Virus record (IMG/VR): IMGVR_UViG_2537561937_000013
Span: 1-20,192 of that record
DNA from: a virus
Lineage: Duplodnaviria > Heunggongvirae > Uroviricota > Caudoviricetes
Reading direction: 5' to 3' (one strand)
DNA length: 20,192 nucleotides
Numbering within the stretch: the first letter of the stretch is position 1; each line of letters begins with the position of its first letter. The notes beneath the pieces are model-generated. The model did not search any database. It had not been told where the DNA came from and saw only the letters and a list, made by a program, of their open reading frames with translations. Of this stretch, positions 12,612-19,097 are shown piece by piece. Both the position numbers and the translations under genes were made by a program.

Positions 12612-12992
12612 ATGACTGAACGCATAGAATTTGTTTTGCCTTACCCGCCAACGGTGAACACTTACTGGCGTCGTCGTGGCAGCACATATTTTGTATCAAA
12701 AGCCGGGGAGCGTTATCGCCGGGCAGTGGCGCTTATTGTTCGCCAGCAGCGGCTGAAATTAAGCCTGTCCGGAAGGTTGGCAATAAAAATTATTGCAGAA
12801 CCACCGGATAAGCGCCGCCGTGACCTGGACAATATTCTGAAAGCGCCGCTGGATGCGCTGACGCATGCGGGGTTGCTAATGGACGATGAGCAGTTTGATG
12901 AAATCAATATCGTTCGTGGTCAGCCAGTATCTGGTGGACGTCTGGGGGTGAAGATTTACCCCATAATGCATGAAGAGCAGGTCAAAAAATGA
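12612..12992 (+). CDS. rusA: Holliday junction resolvase RusA
   Basis: 126 aa. Matches by eye the pattern of E. coli RusA (PYPPTVNTYW vs LPWPPSNNRYY; PDKRRRDLDNILKA vs PDRRRRDLDNLQKA; LDDEQFDEINIVRG; GGRLGVKIY). Confidence 0.9.
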   Translation: MTERIEFVLPYPPTVNTYWRRRGSTYFVSKAGERYRRAVALIVRQQRLKLSLSGRLAIKIIAEPPDKRRRDLDNILKAPLDALTHAGLLMDDEQFDEINIVRGQPVSGGRLGVKIYPIMHEEQVKK

Positions 12993-13810
12993 AACTGGAA
13001 GATTTACCGAAATACTACTCCCCAAAATCCCCCGGCCTGACTGATGCATCGGCCTCAACGTCGAAAGATGCGCTGAGTATCACTGATGTGATGGCCGCGC
13101 AGGGCATGACACAGAATCGGGCTGAGATGGGGTTTTCTGCGTTCCTGGGGAAAATGGGCATCAGTATGAATGACAGGGCGCGGGCAACAGAATTACTGGC
13201 AGATTATGCACTCAGTCGGTGCGATCGTGTGGCGGCGTTGAGAAAACTTCCGGCAGAAATAAAACCGGTAGTGATGCGCATTATGGCTTCGTACGCTTTT
13301 GAGGATTATGCCCGCAGCGCAGCGAGTAAAAAGCAGTGCCCCTGTTGCCGAGGGGAAAAATTTATTGAAGGCGAAGTTTTTACAAACAAGGTTCAGTATC
13401 CGGATGGCAAGCCGCCAGTGTGGGCAAAGTGCACAAAAGGCGTGTATCCGTCTTACTGGGAAGAATGGAAAAAAGTCAGGGAGGTGGTAAAAGTTGCCTG
13501 TCCGGAGTGTGGCGGAAAGGGTGAGGTTTCCACCGCCTGTAAGGATTGCCGTGGGCGTGGTGTCGCCATTCATCGTGAAGAGTCGGTAAAACGTGGTATG
13601 CCTGTTATCAGAGATTGCCAGCGTTGTGGTGGTCGTGGCTGTGAAAGGCTGCCATCAACGGAGGCATTTAATGCCATATGCAAAGTGACGAGTGCTATCA
13701 CGCTTGATACGTGGAAAAAATCAGTGAAACGCTTTTACGATACGTTGGTGGTTCGGTTTGACATTGAAGAGGCATGGGCGGAGCGGCAGTTAAAGAGGGT
13801 AACGCGATAG
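12989..13810 (+). CDS. Putative late antiterminator Q (QuuQ-like) with four CxxCxGxG zinc-finger repeats
   Basis: 273 aa. ATGA overlap with rusA. Repeats CPCCRGEK, CPECGGKG, CKDCRGRG, CQRCGGRG. Position immediately upstream of a promoter plus terminator and the late region. Family assignment is positional and by recollection. Confidence 0.55.
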   Translation: MKLEDLPKYYSPKSPGLTDASASTSKDALSITDVMAAQGMTQNRAEMGFSAFLGKMGISMNDRARATELLADYALSRCDRVAALRKLPAEIKPVVMRIMASYAFEDYARSAASKKQCPCCRGEKFIEGEVFTNKVQYPDGKPPVWAKCTKGVYPSYWEEWKKVREVVKVACPECGGKGEVSTACKDCRGRGVAIHREESVKRGMPVIRDCQRCGGRGCERLPSTEAFNAICKVTSAITLDTWKKSVKRFYDTLVVRFDIEEAWAERQLKRVTR

Positions 13811-13843: not shown

Positions 13844-13890
13844 TGCTCTAACGATGGGCGTTTTATGCCTGACGTTAGAAGATTTTTTAC

Positions 13891-13916
13891 ACCCCGCCGC
13901 CTGGCGGGTTTTTTAT
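13891..13916 (+). terminator. Rho-independent terminator (tR'-like) downstream of the late promoter
   Basis: Stem CCCGCC / GGCGGG with loop GCCT, followed by TTTTTTAT. Confidence 0.6.
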
Positions 13917-14046
13917 GACTGAAATCGCGTCAGTACAGTAAACGCGCTGGTGGCGGTGAATACCTGTCTTTCAGCTTGCTGGCTTTTTCGACAAGAGTTA
14001 TTGGTGTGTCACGTTAACCGGAAAAGGGAAAAAGACATGCTAAAAC

Positions 14047-14234
14047 AGCAGGATATGACAGAAACCGCCAGAGTGGTGTTTAATGAATTAAGCGTTACCG
14101 AACCGGCGACAGTCGGGGAGATAGCGCAGAATACTTACCTTTCACGCGAACGCTGCCAGTTAATACTGACCCAGCTGGTTATGGCGGGTCTGGCAGACTA
14201 TCAGTTCGGTTGTTACAGACGCCTTCCGCAGTGA
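14047..14234 (+). CDS. Small hypothetical protein (62 aa), possible winged-helix DNA binder
   Basis: ATG at 14047 with a GGGA-type RBS (track ORF starts at 13950). Segment TVGEIAQNTYLSRERCQLILTQLVMAGLADY looks HTH-like. The stop lies inside a terminator hairpin. Confidence 0.4.
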
Positions 14235-14249
14235 AGGCTTTTTTATTTG
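14221..14249 (+). terminator. Rho-independent terminator
   Basis: Stem GCCTTC / GAAGGC with loop CGCAGT, followed by TTTTTTATTTG. Confidence 0.5.
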
Positions 14250-14384
14250 TGGTAAATGGGCGGCTGGTGGGTGTTAGGGGCACCCACCAGCCATCTGCTC
14301 ATGCGTTGGGTTCACAAGCAAACCTCAGGCCCACTGCTTTGCGCAAAAGCAGAATGAGCCTATCAGAGACAGGCTTAATGATCC

Positions 14385-15434
14385 ATGCTTGATACTGTAA
14401 AAATATCCAGTTGTGAGTTAATCAACGCCGACTGCCTGGAATTTATCCGGTCGTTACCCGAAAATTCTGTTGACCTGATAGTCACGGACCCGCCGTACTT
14501 TAAAGTGAAGCCTGAGGGCTGGGATAACCAGTGGAAGGGCGACGATGATTACCTGAAGTGGCTGGACCAGTGTCTGGCGCAGTTCTGGCGGGTGCTGAAA
14601 CCTGTCGGAAGTCTTTACCTGTTCTGTGGTCATCGCCTGGCATCTGATATCGAAATCATGATGCGTGAACGCTTCAGTGTGCTGAACCATATTATCTGGG
14701 CGAAGCCGTCCGGACGCTGGAACGGATGCAACAAGGAAAGCCTGCGGGCGTATTTCCCCGCCACAGAGCGCATTCTGTTCGCGGAACATTATCAGGGGCC
14801 GTATCGTCCGAAAGATGCCGGGTATGCGGCGAAGGGCAGTGCACTGAAACAGCATGTGATGGCCCCGCTGATTTCTTACTTTCGTGATGCGCGCGCGGCC
14901 CTGGGGATAACGGCAAAACAGATTGCAGATGCCACAGGAAAGAAAAACATGGTGTCGCACTGGTTCAGTGCCAGTCAGTGGCAGCTACCGAACGAAAGCG
15001 ATTATCTGAAATTACAGTCGCTGTTTGCCCGGGTGGCAGAAGAGAAACATCAGCGCGGTGAACTGGAAAAGCCCCACCACCAGCTGGTGGATACGTATAC
15101 GTCACTGAACCGGCAGTATGTGGAGCTGCAGAGTGAATATAAGCATCTGCGGCGGTATTTTGGTGTGACGGCGCAGGTGCCGTACACGGATGTGTGGACA
15201 CATAAACCGGTGCAGTTCTATCCCGGGAAACATCCGTGCGAAAAACCGGCAGAAATGCTGCAGCAGATAATCAGCGCAAGCAGTCGTCCGGGTGACCTGG
15301 TTGCAGATTTTTTTATGGGCTCAGGTTCAACGGTAAAAGCTGCACTGGCGCTCGGGCGTCGTGCGATTGGCGTTGAACTGGAGACCGGACGTTTTGAGCA
15401 GACAGTCAGGGAAGTTCAGGATTTAATCGTTTGA
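14385..15434 (+). CDS. Orphan DNA methyltransferase (N6-adenine or N4-cytosine; DPPY catalytic motif before FxGxG motif I)
   Basis: 349 aa. DPPY at nt 14487-14498. C-terminal FFMGSGST (AdoMet motif I). No adjacent restriction endonuclease. Stx-type phages carry a methyltransferase at this position between Q and the tRNAs. Confidence 0.9.
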   Translation: MLDTVKISSCELINADCLEFIRSLPENSVDLIVTDPPYFKVKPEGWDNQWKGDDDYLKWLDQCLAQFWRVLKPVGSLYLFCGHRLASDIEIMMRERFSVLNHIIWAKPSGRWNGCNKESLRAYFPATERILFAEHYQGPYRPKDAGYAAKGSALKQHVMAPLISYFRDARAALGITAKQIADATGKKNMVSHWFSASQWQLPNESDYLKLQSLFARVAEEKHQRGELEKPHHQLVDTYTSLNRQYVELQSEYKHLRRYFGVTAQVPYTDVWTHKPVQFYPGKHPCEKPAEMLQQIISASSRPGDLVADFFMGSGSTVKAALALGRRAIGVELETGRFEQTVREVQDLIV

Positions 15435-15483
15435 AACGGATGAGATTGCAGAATTAATTACGCACCATTATTATTCTGCTTCC

Positions 15484-15559
15484 GGCCCTTTAGCTCAGTG
15501 GTGAGAGCGAGCGACTCATAATCGCCAGGTCGCTGGTTCAAATCCAGCAAGGGCCACCA
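15484..15559 (+). tRNA. tRNA with CAU anticodon (ileZ-like tRNA-Ile2 reading AUA, or tRNA-Met)
   Basis: 76 nt. Acceptor stem GGCCCTT / AAGGGCC, D-arm AGCTCAGTGG, anticodon loop CTCATAA, T-arm GGTTCAAATCC, 3' CCA encoded. Close to E. coli ileX/ileY by eye. Confidence 0.85.
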
Positions 15560-15659
15560 TCACAAACCGCCATTAGCTTATCAGGAAGAGCAGACGACAC
15601 GATAACAGGGTTGTTGGTGCGGGGGCGGGTCCCCGATGGCGGTCCATTATCGGTATTCA

Positions 15660-15736
15660 GCGTTGTTAGCTCAGCCGGACAGAGCAATTGCCTTCTAAGC
15701 AATCGGTCACTGGTTCGAATCCAGTACAGCGCGCCA
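15660..15736 (+). tRNA. tRNA-Arg (UCU anticodon, argN-like, reads AGA)
   Basis: 77 nt. Acceptor GCGTTGT / ACAGCGC (one G-U pair), anticodon loop CTTCTAA, T-arm GGTTCGAATCC, 3' CCA encoded. Confidence 0.85.
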
Positions 15737-15873
15737 TATTCATTCTTCCAGATTCCTTTCGGCAGAGCCTTATACTGAAATATACCTGGCTCAGGATATT
15801 GTTGAAAATATTATATGTTTGTCAAAAATAAAAGTTCTGTTAAGTGTTGATTGAGTGTTTGTTATACGGTCTA

Positions 15874-16200
15874 ATGGTTTTTTCAGCATTAAATATTTAT
15901 CATTCATATGGTGTGGGTAGAGTGAATATTGATGAGGCGTCGGGGTGTTTCATCCTTAGGCAGCGTATTGATATAGTCAATGCAGAACGAGCAAAGGCCT
16001 TCAGCCGTTTGACAGTTTTGTTCTGTACTCCTGATCGTCTTTCGGGAAGAGACGTTATTATTCTGAATAGTGATGCTATACAGAGGGTTTGCGATGAGTT
16101 CATGGTTGCTAATTCAGAATTATTTGCTCTTGTTCAGGAGTACAACAGAATAGCCAGGACCTGTGGTATGGATGAACTTCGGATTACTCATCTGGGGTAG
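15874..16200 (+). CDS. Hypothetical moron protein in the stx-equivalent locus (start uncertain)
   Basis: Track ORF 15844..16200 (GTG). First in-frame ATG at 15874 has no clear RBS. AT-rich. No family recognised. Confidence 0.35.
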   Translation: MVFSALNIYHSYGVGRVNIDEASGCFILRQRIDIVNAERAKAFSRLTVLFCTPDRLSGRDVIILNSDAIQRVCDEFMVANSELFALVQEYNRIARTCGMDELRITHLG

Positions 16201-16592
16201 ATACATATCTGGATTATCACCGGTTACGGTAAAAAGTGATTGCTTACTGTTTTTGTGAATGGCATTGCAGCAGCCGGATAATGTCAGTGCTGGCTGACGG
16301 TGTGCTGGTGGCGGGTGTGGTGGTTGCTGCTTTCCCGTTGCTGAAAAAGAAAACGCCAGACTGTTAGCCGGGTATCAGTTAGCGGGAGAAATTTTTAAAT
16401 ACTTCACAATTCAGGCGGTTGACTGTTGTCTGGTTTGCGGGGAGTTTGTTAAAAGAAACTGGCATGGTGAATCCCCCTGTGCGGAGGGGCAATCAGCGAG
16501 TAGGTATATGGGATAATCGCGGATTCAGGTGCTGGTACTGAATTCACCGGGAGGCACCCGGCACCATGCAATGGCACATAGCGCCACTCTCC

Positions 16593-16625
16593 AGCCCCTC
16601 TCCGGAGGGGCTGTTTATATTGATT
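16593..16625 (+). terminator. Strong hairpin, likely intrinsic terminator
   Basis: Stem AGCCCCTC / GAGGGGCT with loop TCCG, followed by GTTTATATTGATTTT. Confidence 0.45.
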
Positions 16626-16647
16626 TTGTCAGATGTGAGTAAACTCC

Positions 16648-16983
16648 TTATGGACTTTGTTGTTTTAGCCCATAAGGACATATTTGCAGAGTGCAACGGT
16701 TATTAAAGCATTCATTCAATACGTTATCTGTATTTGTAGGGCATTCCTGGCTGTTTTTGATTAAATTCCAGAATGTTTTATTGAATGGTACTACGTTGTA
16801 AATGGTTACAGGCAGCACTTTGTTATTGAGCATGATGCCTGTGTGAGTCAGTGTAAATATACTTTCAGGAGGTAAGAAAGCATCCGATTGATACCAGATT
16901 ATTAATTTTATTTTACTCCATATGACTGAAAAAGATATTCCGCATGATGGCTGGATAACTGTATCAATCACAATCCACTTCAT
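16648..16983 (-). CDS. Hypothetical AT-rich moron protein (111 aa), antisense to late transcription
   Basis: Track ORF. ATG at 16981-16983 with AGGA about 9 nt upstream. Cysteine-containing. No family recognised. Confidence 0.4.
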
Positions 16984-17228
16984 TTAGTTTCCTTGTTTAT
17001 GCCTTGCTGGTGATGTTCTGAAAAGTATAAATGATATTTTTGATTGTAAACCATAGAGCAGAATTATTTTTCTGATGTTGTTTATTGTTTATTTAAATGC
17101 AGGGTGGTTTATATCTCGTCTTGTAGTTTATCCATGCATATCTGCTTGATGATGAGGTTTTTAATTAAGGTATGGTTTTGTGTTTTTTCTGTATTACATG
17201 TCAGGTATTTTAAAGAATCATTTTTCAG

Positions 17229-19097
17229 ATGGTGAAAAGAACCATGGCATTTAAACACTATGATGTTGTCAGGGCGGCGTCGCCGTCAGATCTTGCGGAA
17301 AAGCTGACACATAAACTGAAAGAGGGCTGGCAGCCGTTTGGTAGTCCGGTGGCCATAACCCCTTATACCCTGATGCAGGCGATTGCAGCAGAAGGTGATG
17401 TGGTCGTCAGTGGTGCAACTGAGCCGGAGTGGTACTACGTCATCGTACTGGCCGGGCAGTCCAATGCCATGGCTTACGGTGAAGGGCTTCCGCTTCCGGA
17501 TTCATACGATGCGCCCCATCCGCGCATTAAGCAACTGGCCCGTCGTAACACAGTGACTCCCGGTGGTGAAGTATGCGTATTTAACGACATCATTCCTGCT
17601 GACCATTGTCTGCATGATGTTCAGGATATGAGTACGATTAACCATCCCCGGGCTGACCTGAGCAAAGGGCAGTACGGCTGTGTCGGCCAGGGCTTACATA
17701 TTGCCAAAAAACTGCTTCCGTATATCCCTAATAATGCGGGGATCCTGCTGGTACCATGCTGTCGTGGTGGTTCGGCATTCACCCAGGGCACGGAGGGGAC
17801 ATTCAGCGAGTCCACGGGGGCCAGTCAGGATTCGGCTCGCTGGGGAGTGGGTAAGCCGTTATATCAGGATCTGCTTTTCCGCACGAAGGCAGCATTGCAG
17901 AAAAACCCGAAAAACGTTTTGCTGGCGATATGCTGGATGCAGGGGGAATTCGATATGACGAATGCCAGTTACGCCCAGCAGCCAGCAGCATTTCTTGCAA
18001 TGGTACAGCAGTTCCGTGCTGACCTTGCCGGGCTGGCAGCGCAGTGTCACGGTGGAAGTCCGGCATCAGTCCCCTGGATTTGTGGCGACACGACATACGC
18101 GTGGAAACAAGAACACGGTACGCAATATGAAGTGGTATATGGTGCATATAAAGGTAAAGAATCCCAGCAGATTTATTTTGTTCCCTTTATGACCGATGGT
18201 AGCGGAGTTAATACACCGACAAACAACCCGTCAGAAGATCCTGATATTGCCGGGTCTGGTTATTACGGTTCGGCATCCCGAACGAACAAAAACTGGGTAT
18301 CATCAAATCGCCCGACGCATTTCAGCTCATGGGCGCGTCGTGGCATTATTCCCGATCGTATGGCAACTGCTATTCTGAACGTAGCCGGGCGCACCTCAGC
18401 CTTCATCAGTGGTAAGGCACCGGAAATCAAACCCTCGCCCGGCGGCGACACGCCATCGGGTCCGTCTGCAGATACGTCCGTTCGCACAATCTCCCTGCTG
18501 CCGACAGCCGGAGAGGCTGCTGCGCAGGGCTGGACCATTAAGGACGGCGGAATTCAGTTGTCGGGTGGTGTATTTAAGATCGCCAAGCAGAGCAATAAAG
18601 CCTGGTCCCTGACGCGCCCGGTGGATGACGCAGTCTCCCTGCTGACACGGGGTGGCAGACTGAGCTGTAAGTTTCGACTGTCAGGCGCACTGACCAACAA
18701 TCAGTTCGGTCTGGGAATTTATCTGTATACCGATGTAGCGTTACCTGACGTCGTGGCGATGACCGGGACTGGTAACCCGTTCCTGATGTCGTTCTTCACC
18801 CAGACCACAGACGGCAAACTGAATCTGATGCATCACAAGAAAGCAGGAAACACAAAGTTGGGCGAGTTCGGGAATTACAGTAACGACTGGCAGACGCTGG
18901 AGCTGGTGTTCCCCGCCGGCAGTGCCACGGTTACTCCGAAACTGAATGGAGTGGCTGGCCCGGCATTCCAGGCCATAAAAGACAGTCTGGCAGTGGGACT
19001 AAATGCACTGACGCTGACGGATATTACCAAAAATGCAACGTATGGCGTTGAGATAGAAAGTCTGGTGCTGGAGATAAATGCACCGGCATCATCATAA
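17229..19097 (+). CDS. nanS: Prophage NanS-p-type sialate O-acetylesterase (SGNH/SASA hydrolase with N-terminal phage-specific domain)
   Basis: 622 aa. SGNH block-I-like motif VLAGQSNAMAYGEG. Stx-type and related lambdoid phages carry this gene between the stx locus and the lysis genes. Recognised from recollection of the family. Confidence 0.85.
   Translation: MVKRTMAFKHYDVVRAASPSDLAEKLTHKLKEGWQPFGSPVAITPYTLMQAIAAEGDVVVSGATEPEWYYVIVLAGQSNAMAYGEGLPLPDSYDAPHPRIKQLARRNTVTPGGEVCVFNDIIPADHCLHDVQDMSTINHPRADLSKGQYGCVGQGLHIAKKLLPYIPNNAGILLVPCCRGGSAFTQGTEGTFSESTGASQDSARWGVGKPLYQDLLFRTKAALQKNPKNVLLAICWMQGEFDMTNASYAQQPAAFLAMVQQFRADLAGLAAQCHGGSPASVPWICGDTTYAWKQEHGTQYEVVYGAYKGKESQQIYFVPFMTDGSGVNTPTNNPSEDPDIAGSGYYGSASRTNKNWVSSNRPTHFSSWARRGIIPDRMATAILNVAGRTSAFISGKAPEIKPSPGGDTPSGPSADTSVRTISLLPTAGEAAAQGWTIKDGGIQLSGGVFKIAKQSNKAWSLTRPVDDAVSLLTRGGRLSCKFRLSGALTNNQFGLGIYLYTDVALPDVVAMTGTGNPFLMSFFTQTTDGKLNLMHHKKAGNTKLGEFGNYSNDWQTLELVFPAGSATVTPKLNGVAGPAFQAIKDSLAVGLNALTLTDITKNATYGVEIESLVLEINAPASS

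Follow-up and report, generated by a model that had tools for sequence, protein, structure and literature searches.

What lies at the position of the Shiga toxin (Stx) genes in a lambdoid prophage that carries no toxin? We examined this question in a 20,192-nt stretch of a virus of the Caudoviricetes (IMG/VR record IMGVR_UViG_2537561937_000013, positions 1 to 20,192; hereafter the window), at the interval 15737-17228. An earlier note, made from the sequence alone, had described this interval as AT-rich, unannotated cargo at the place of stxA and stxB, with one open reading frame (ORF) on each strand and a strong hairpin. Everything that the note listed (the ORFs, the hairpin, the AT-rich composition) is present at the stated place. 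Our analysis makes us highly confident that the interval, at the stx position, belongs to the late operon of an E. coli lambdoid prophage without Stx and forms a composite moron region with four separable elements: a gene for a phrog_2873 small protein (15922-16200, plus strand), a gene for a 43-aa DUF3927/TciB-like protein (16236-16367, plus strand), a small RNA (sRNA) of the STnc100 family (16433-16622, plus strand) and the anti-adaptor gene iraL (16648-16983, minus strand). The apparent mystery cargo is thus mainly described iraL and STnc100. The locus is already known, as iraL, STnc100 and DUF3927 are named in NCBIfam, Rfam and Pfam; experimental backing is direct for iraL (in strain CFT073) and comes through the transcription of other copies for STnc100.

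The minus-strand gene is iraL

The minus-strand ORF, to which the earlier note rightly gave a decent ribosome-binding site (AAGGAA, 7 nt 5' of the ATG), encodes a 111-aa protein identical at all 111 residues to IraL of CFT073 (WP_000871291.1, in the potB prophage; positions 13466-13801 of locus L006). The O104:H4 copy is likewise 111/111 identical. The statement that neither ORF resembles anything nameable therefore fails here, because the product is that of a characterised gene, an anti-adaptor of RssB in the IraM/IraL/RssC family. The NCBIfam IraM model NF007393 scored 162 bits over residues 1-110 (profile positions 1-113 of 114), and this whole-protein score, above the curated cut-off of 121 bits, places the protein in the family. 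The crystallised IraM (PDB 8twd) was matched with an E-value of 9e-32, the N-terminal 78 residues aligning without a gap. Within the family, membership of the IraL subtype requires an identity of 95% or more to the CFT073 gene across the entire coding region (PMC4045071), a level that the gene in the window exceeds. The K-12 IraM subtype, which takes at least 95% identity together with the K-12 promoter context, does not apply; 66 of the 111 residues (59%) are shared with K-12 IraM, agreeing with the 58.9% reported between IraL and IraM (PMC4045071). At the DNA level, similarity to the K-12 iraM locus is confined to the coding sequence (16664-16985, 71%); therefore, the promoter differs from that of K-12 iraM.

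The promoter could be placed from published mapping. The 5' end of the CFT073 iraL mRNA was determined by rapid amplification of cDNA ends (5'-RACE) as ACATCACCAGCAAGGCATAAACAAGGAAACCA (PMC4045071). This 32-nt sequence is present on the minus strand of the window with one mismatch, and we therefore set the iraL transcription start at 17016, which gives a 5' untranslated region (UTR) of 16984-17016. A core promoter conserved with CFT073 (TTTACA ... TATACT/TACTTT) lies within 16984-17056 on the same strand, and promoter and UTR together differ from CFT073 by three substitutions in about 80 nt. The gene thus has the iraL-type promoter and 5' UTR with their mapped start, in a region (15445-17463) that is 97% identical to CFT073 DNA.

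Experiments in uropathogenic E. coli CFT073 have shown that IraL acts as an anti-adaptor of RssB and keeps sigma-S stable in log phase (Hryckowian et al. 2014, PMC4045071). Its interaction with RssB is confined to the RssB N-domain, and its regulation differs from that of IraM (PMC4045071). Later work, reporting IraL levels raised in a fur mutant and iraL mRNA raised on a shift to 37 °C, shows that the gene is expressed and regulated in CFT073. The IraL of the window would likewise be expected to bind RssB and to stabilise sigma-S in log phase. In the mechanism that we propose, iraL would have a sigma-70-type promoter of its own and be transcribed antisense to, and independently of, the Q-dependent late transcript, and its product would bind the RssB N-terminal domain and block the delivery of sigma-S (RpoS) to ClpXP. 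Because of this block, the lysogen would keep raised sigma-S in exponential growth, a lysogenic conversion that has been shown for the identical CFT073 protein and would extend to this prophage. The earlier idea that cargo at this position is driven by late transcription is not supported for iraL, since the gene is antisense to the late operon and has its own promoter, with the start mapped in CFT073 conserved; it may apply to the three plus-strand elements, which late transcription antiterminated by Q would cross.

The structured segment is an STnc100-family sRNA

Convergent with iraL and 25 nt from it lies a plus-strand sRNA of the STnc100 family, kin to EcOnc27/sRNA103 and PasD. The Rfam model RF02076 matches over its full length (model positions 1-206 of 206) with 132.4 bits (E-value 4.5e-30; gathering score, 47). 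The strong hairpin of the earlier note is confirmed at 16592-16613, with nine pairs, seven of them G-C, and then TTTATATT; a terminator scan identifies it as the intrinsic terminator of the sRNA. What had been listed as a GC-rich structured segment and a hairpin of unnamed cargo is therefore a single named RNA. Nine STnc100 copies from related loci have in common a closing stem, three internal hairpins and the terminator, and RNAalifold on these copies kept all helices, most pairs being invariant and six showing compensatory changes; the conserved multi-stem core and the 3' intrinsic terminator of the family are thus both present. The minimum free energy of the region is -74.6 kcal/mol (z -2.3).

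In Stx phages, an STnc100 copy is found directly 3' of stxB (PMC12370729; PMC12711010); where the copy lies 75 nt 3' of stx2B, it overlaps EcOnc27/sRNA103, an sRNA bound by Hfq. Eleven STnc100 copies are listed for EDL933, all with transcriptome reads and one confirmed by Northern blot, and a 2026 preprint ties STnc100 to PasD, which likewise lies just upstream of an esterase gene. By analogy with these copies, transcribed in enterohaemorrhagic E. coli, the window copy would be expected to yield a discrete small-RNA transcript, a structured plus-strand sRNA ending in a Rho-independent terminator. The hairpin shared between STnc100 and iraL has its U-tract on the plus strand only, and iraL transcripts may therefore extend antisense into STnc100.

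RefSeq carries a partial pseudo 'hypothetical protein' coding sequence on the minus strand over STnc100 in two of the related loci (L001 6716-6841 and L006 13270-13395; about 16452-16577 in the window), which is most likely a spurious call on structured RNA. In phage vB_EcoS-640R1, two tandem STnc100 copies (L004 3061-3254 and 3530-3718) lie upstream of an IraM-family gene close to iraL, in a region of 96.6% DNA identity; the first of them comes after a DUF3927-like ORF.

Cassettes are exchanged on both sides of STnc100

The earlier note had placed the interval at the stx position and had seen no stxA or stxB, and both statements hold. Scans of the three ORFs against Pfam, NCBIfam and PHROG gave no match to a Shiga toxin family, and the Stx2a phage Stx2_EH2201 (LC567829) is collinear with the window on both sides, with stx2A-stx2B in between. 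The left block (13894-15744, 93.6% identity) covers a small ORF, the methylase gene and the tRNAs, and the right block (16404-18377, 68%) covers STnc100, a minus-strand IraM-family gene and nanS-p. Collinearity stops at 15744 and resumes at 16404. Between these points, stx2A-stx2B (1368 bp) in the Stx2a phage stands against phrog_2873 and DUF3927 (659 bp, 15745-16403) in the window, and no homology to the Stx2a phage was found within 15745-16403. These alignment boundaries allow the stx-equivalent position to be stated to the base, with phrog_2873 and DUF3927 together filling the exact stx2AB slot.

Comparison with further phages and prophages extends this exchange to the other side. To the left of STnc100, stx2A-stx2B is found in Stx2_EH2201, phrog_2873 with DUF3927 in the window and in phage mEp460, and TciA(TerB)-TciB(DUF3927) in JLK-2012 and PPyecE_EH1910. 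To the right lie iraL in the window, CFT073 and O104:H4, a third IraM-family allele in Stx2_EH2201 and the AgvB sRNA in the Stx1 phage 75/02 (L005 3666-3725) and PPyecE_EH1910 (L012 8462-8523), all on the minus strand, and a TolA C-domain protein in mEp460. STnc100 is thus the constant anchor, and cassettes are exchanged on both of its sides, giving a clean map of a fixed sRNA between left and right slots with exchangeable cargo. AgvB, an anti-GcvB sRNA, follows STnc100 immediately, in the slot of iraL. The third IraM/IraL allele, at L011 9471-9794 on the minus strand (LC567829.1 17131-17454), comes after stx2B and STnc100 and is identical to IraL at 80 of 111 residues and to K-12 IraM at 70 of 107. 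A literature search on iraM in Stx2 phages found no paper discussing this Stx2a-phage allele. Some Stx2a phages carry an IraM-family anti-adaptor next to stx2, a link between toxin phages and the control of sigma-S.

The two small plus-strand genes of the stx slot

The ORF directly 5' of STnc100 (16236-16367) was overlooked in the earlier note, whose list was limited to two ORFs. It encodes a 43-aa protein that scores 92.7 bits with Pfam PF13064 (gathering cut-off, 25), matches phrog_1470 ('TciB-like') and is annotated by RefSeq as DUF3927; its hydrophobic core resembles a single membrane span. In the TciA-TciB module, as in JLK-2012 and PPyecE_EH1910, TciA is present beside TciB; loci L012 and L013 have TciA. 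A TciA (TerB) partner is absent upstream of the ORF in the window, where the phrog_2873 ORF gave no TerB match in Pfam or PHROG, and the pair does not constitute that module.

The upstream ORF exists as described, with an ATG at 15874 as its longest ATG form (108 aa, 15874-16200) and a GTG-extended start at 15844. It matches phrog_2873 over the full length of the protein (E-value 1.2e-70, positions 1-108 of 108). Family members of 91-95 aa begin at the position equivalent to a GTG at 15922, and this GTG (92 aa) is the more likely start, rather than the ATG at 15874. Pfam, NCBIfam and PADLOC gave no match to the ORF, and nine members of the phrog_2873 family gave none in Pfam or NCBIfam even at E ≤ 1. 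Its relatives are 54-62% identical. Aligned with the divergent allele of contig L007 over 92 shared codons, it shows no indels, a ratio of nonsynonymous to synonymous substitution rates (dN/dS) of 0.27, and 25, 22 and 43 differences at codon positions 1, 2 and 3. This codon pattern indicates that the ORF is under purifying selection, and it is probably a real gene. The family is narrow, since only 20 clusters among 1.84 billion cluster representatives match the protein. On contig L007, an IS3-family element lies just 5' of the gene, and the moron region there carries an AraC-type regulator, a TolA-C protein and two STnc100 copies (L007 2762-3990, 1933-2658).

An AlphaFold (AF2) model built with the family alignment (predicted local distance difference test, pLDDT, 88) consists of two helices of about 30 residues and a short loop, so that the protein is predicted to be an antiparallel two-helix hairpin. 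Foldseek against the PDB with a first model (pLDDT 72) gave no match at E ≤ 0.001, and the fold searches returned generic helical hairpins only. Kinship to GapR/UPF0335, raised by weak profile matches to PDB sequences (E-values 0.04-0.2), was backed by neither fold search; we therefore keep GapR as a lead only.

Annotation of the locus is uneven. RefSeq annotates the IraM-family gene and the DUF3927 gene, and the description of the locus as unannotated stands for the phrog_2873 ORF alone: none of 13 sampled full-length RefSeq matches has an annotated feature there, nor do CFT073 and O104:H4. The missing gene call looks systematic in RefSeq, and a conserved ORF is thus probably left out routinely from annotated E. 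coli genomes. The phrog_2873 gene is the least explained part of the locus. Presumably the late operon, or else a weak promoter of the gene itself, would drive expression of its protein. That it is a new late-expressed phage accessory factor, for example in host takeover, anti-defence or superinfection exclusion, possibly acting with the TciB-like peptide in the place of TciA, is a speculative reading to which we give a small share of our confidence.

Composition and flanking genes

The interval is flanked by two tRNA genes on the left and by the gene of a 622-aa esterase on the right. GC content is 35% at 15700-16000, 50-54% in a core at 16300-16600 and 28.5-36.5% at 16600-17200, with 47.5-60% in the flanking genes. 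An AT-rich leader (15737-15921, plus strand, 35% GC) precedes the first cargo gene. At the other end, a very AT-rich intergenic segment (17057-17228, 28-38% GC) separates the divergent iraL and nanS-p genes; it presumably holds the upstream regulatory region of iraL and the translation start region of nanS-p, and Rfam found no RNA family in it. A promoter scan gave sites no more numerous than in shuffled sequence, and its single, weak sigma-70-like match in the leader (15802-15829) is on that account not evidence of function. The scan also failed to recover the mapped iraL promoter and is therefore uninformative on the plus-strand genes.

The left-hand tRNAs, called by ARAGORN and Rfam on the plus strand, are an ileZ-like tRNA-Met(CAT) at 15484-15559, labelled tRNA-Ile in RefSeq relatives, and a tRNA-Arg(TCT) at 15660-15736. 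Between them (15560-15659, plus strand), where neither program called a tRNA, alignment with O104:H4, mEp460 and the Stx2a phage uncovered a degenerate remnant of the middle tRNA of the ileZ-argN-argO trio, with its acceptor arms kept and its anticodon and T arms rewritten. This variant is common to the window and mEp460; the middle position holds an intact tRNA-Arg in O104:H4, in CFT073 and in the Stx2a phage.

Further upstream lie an N6/N4 DNA methylase gene found by Pfam scan (14385-15434), terminator-like sites (13844-13908) and a 273-aa ORF (12989-13810) that aligns with an O104:H4 ORF annotated as an antitermination protein. The small plus-strand ORF at 13950-14234, which follows the Q terminator region and precedes the methylase gene, showed a weak TrmB-like helix-turn-helix match below the cut-off (E-value 0.0065); the aligned phiP27 region is annotated 'TrmB family transcriptional regulator'. 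On the right, the plus-strand gene at 17229-19097 encodes by Pfam a SASA/DUF1737/DUF6645 esterase, a nanS-p-type sialate O-acetylesterase, whose counterpart in O104:H4 is annotated 'SASA family carbohydrate esterase'. A DicF sRNA (RF00039, 76.7 bits) was found at 1444-1495 on the minus strand, in the early part of this prophage.

Alternative explanations

The earlier note had raised toxin, effector or defence genes, and we considered whether a new cargo of this kind has replaced stx and is highly expressed late upon induction. The stx-equivalent position fits such a view, as do the phrog_2873 and DUF3927 proteins, which are encoded on the late-transcript strand without known function, the former under purifying selection. 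PADLOC-DB 2.0, however, returned no defence family for any of the three proteins; Pfam, NCBIfam and PHROG gave no toxin family match to them, with no signal-peptide predictor run. The modelled phrog_2873 fold is a plain helical hairpin, for which only generic matches were returned, and the part of the locus that is both largest and richest in AT is accounted for by iraL and its promoter. We regard this explanation as improbable. Still less credible is the idea that the minus-strand gene is a strict orthologue of K-12 IraM, induced through PhoP by Mg2+ starvation and binding both RssB domains. It draws on the RefSeq name 'anti-adapter protein IraM' and on the score above the cut-off of the NCBIfam IraM model, but full identity to IraL against 66/111 to K-12 IraM, DNA similarity that ends with the coding sequence, hence a different promoter, and the different regulation and N-domain-only RssB interaction reported for IraL (PMC4045071) all speak against it.

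The least probable explanation, in our judgement barely tenable, is that the interval is what remains of known phage sequence in decay, its ORFs being chance products or pseudogenes. A degenerate tRNA lies just upstream, DUF3927 lacks its usual TciA partner and RefSeq places a pseudo coding sequence over the sRNA. Against these signs of decay, none of the three ORFs is disrupted, iraL encodes the same protein as a functional gene, the RF02076 match of STnc100 spans the whole model, the plus-strand ORF has a dN/dS of 0.27, and the 1.5 kb recurs in other genomes, reaching 80% coverage or more in 863 of them and 99.9% identity in the best matches. The earlier note had named absent homologues and a degraded remnant as what would undo its proposal; neither applies here, and the remnant explanation is already largely refuted. 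The composite moron region itself has points against it. One of the three substitutions in the iraL promoter and UTR falls between the Shine-Dalgarno sequence and the ATG, and they could change expression; we infer the expression of iraL and its sigma-S effect in the source strain from CFT073. The promoter scan gave no convincing promoter for STnc100 or the plus-strand ORFs. For phrog_2873, the NCBI pipeline left the ORF uncalled in every full-length match inspected, no strong Shine-Dalgarno sequence was seen 5' of the GTG at 15922, and the product is a predicted one with an uncertain start codon.

Prevalence in E. coli

Among 5426 complete E. coli genomes, the whole 1492 bp is present at a coverage of at least 80% in 863, iraL in 1446 and the phrog_2873 ORF in 1185 (about 22%). 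The best whole-locus matches are 99.9% identical and include O104:H4 outbreak strains; in CFT073, the locus is 97% identical to that of the window.

Comparison with known systems

The closest described relative is IraL of CFT073 (c1429), which is the same 111-aa protein behind the same promoter and 5' UTR apart from the three substitutions. The order in the CFT073 potB prophage is also that of the window (tRNAs, a gap, DUF3927, the IraM-family gene, DUF1737), and STnc100 is common to both. CFT073 differs in its three intact tRNAs, an upstream IS200 and a truncated nanS-p gene, whereas in the window a methylase gene is present, the middle tRNA is degenerate and the esterase is full-length. K-12 IraM (b1160; PDB 8twd) belongs to the same NF007393 family at 59% identity, but it has its own promoter and context beside e14, has no STnc100 nearby, and differs in regulation and in its mode of RssB binding (PMC4045071). 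We considered the K-12 iraM neighbourhood as a remnant of the same locus and rejected this, as it lacks STnc100 and its similarity is limited to the coding sequence.

The backbone of Stx2_EH2201 is that of the window, running from Q through the small ORF, the methylase gene and the tRNAs to the cargo, and on through STnc100 and the minus-strand IraM-family gene to nanS-p and the holin gene; it differs in having stx2A-stx2B as cargo and an IraM-family allele that is 72% identical to IraL and 65% to IraM. The window copy of STnc100 shares with EcOnc27 (sRNA103) and PasD the full-length RF02076 match, the type of terminator and the position 5' of an esterase gene, but it follows DUF3927 instead of stxB. 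STnc100 copies differ in their variable 5' and internal segments, and their targets may therefore differ as well. Finally, the TciA-TciB module of lambdoid and P1-like phages is represented in the window by its second member: the 43-aa ORF is a clear TciB member directly 5' of STnc100, as in JLK-2012 and PPyecE_EH1910, with the TerB-like TciA replaced by the upstream phrog_2873 gene.

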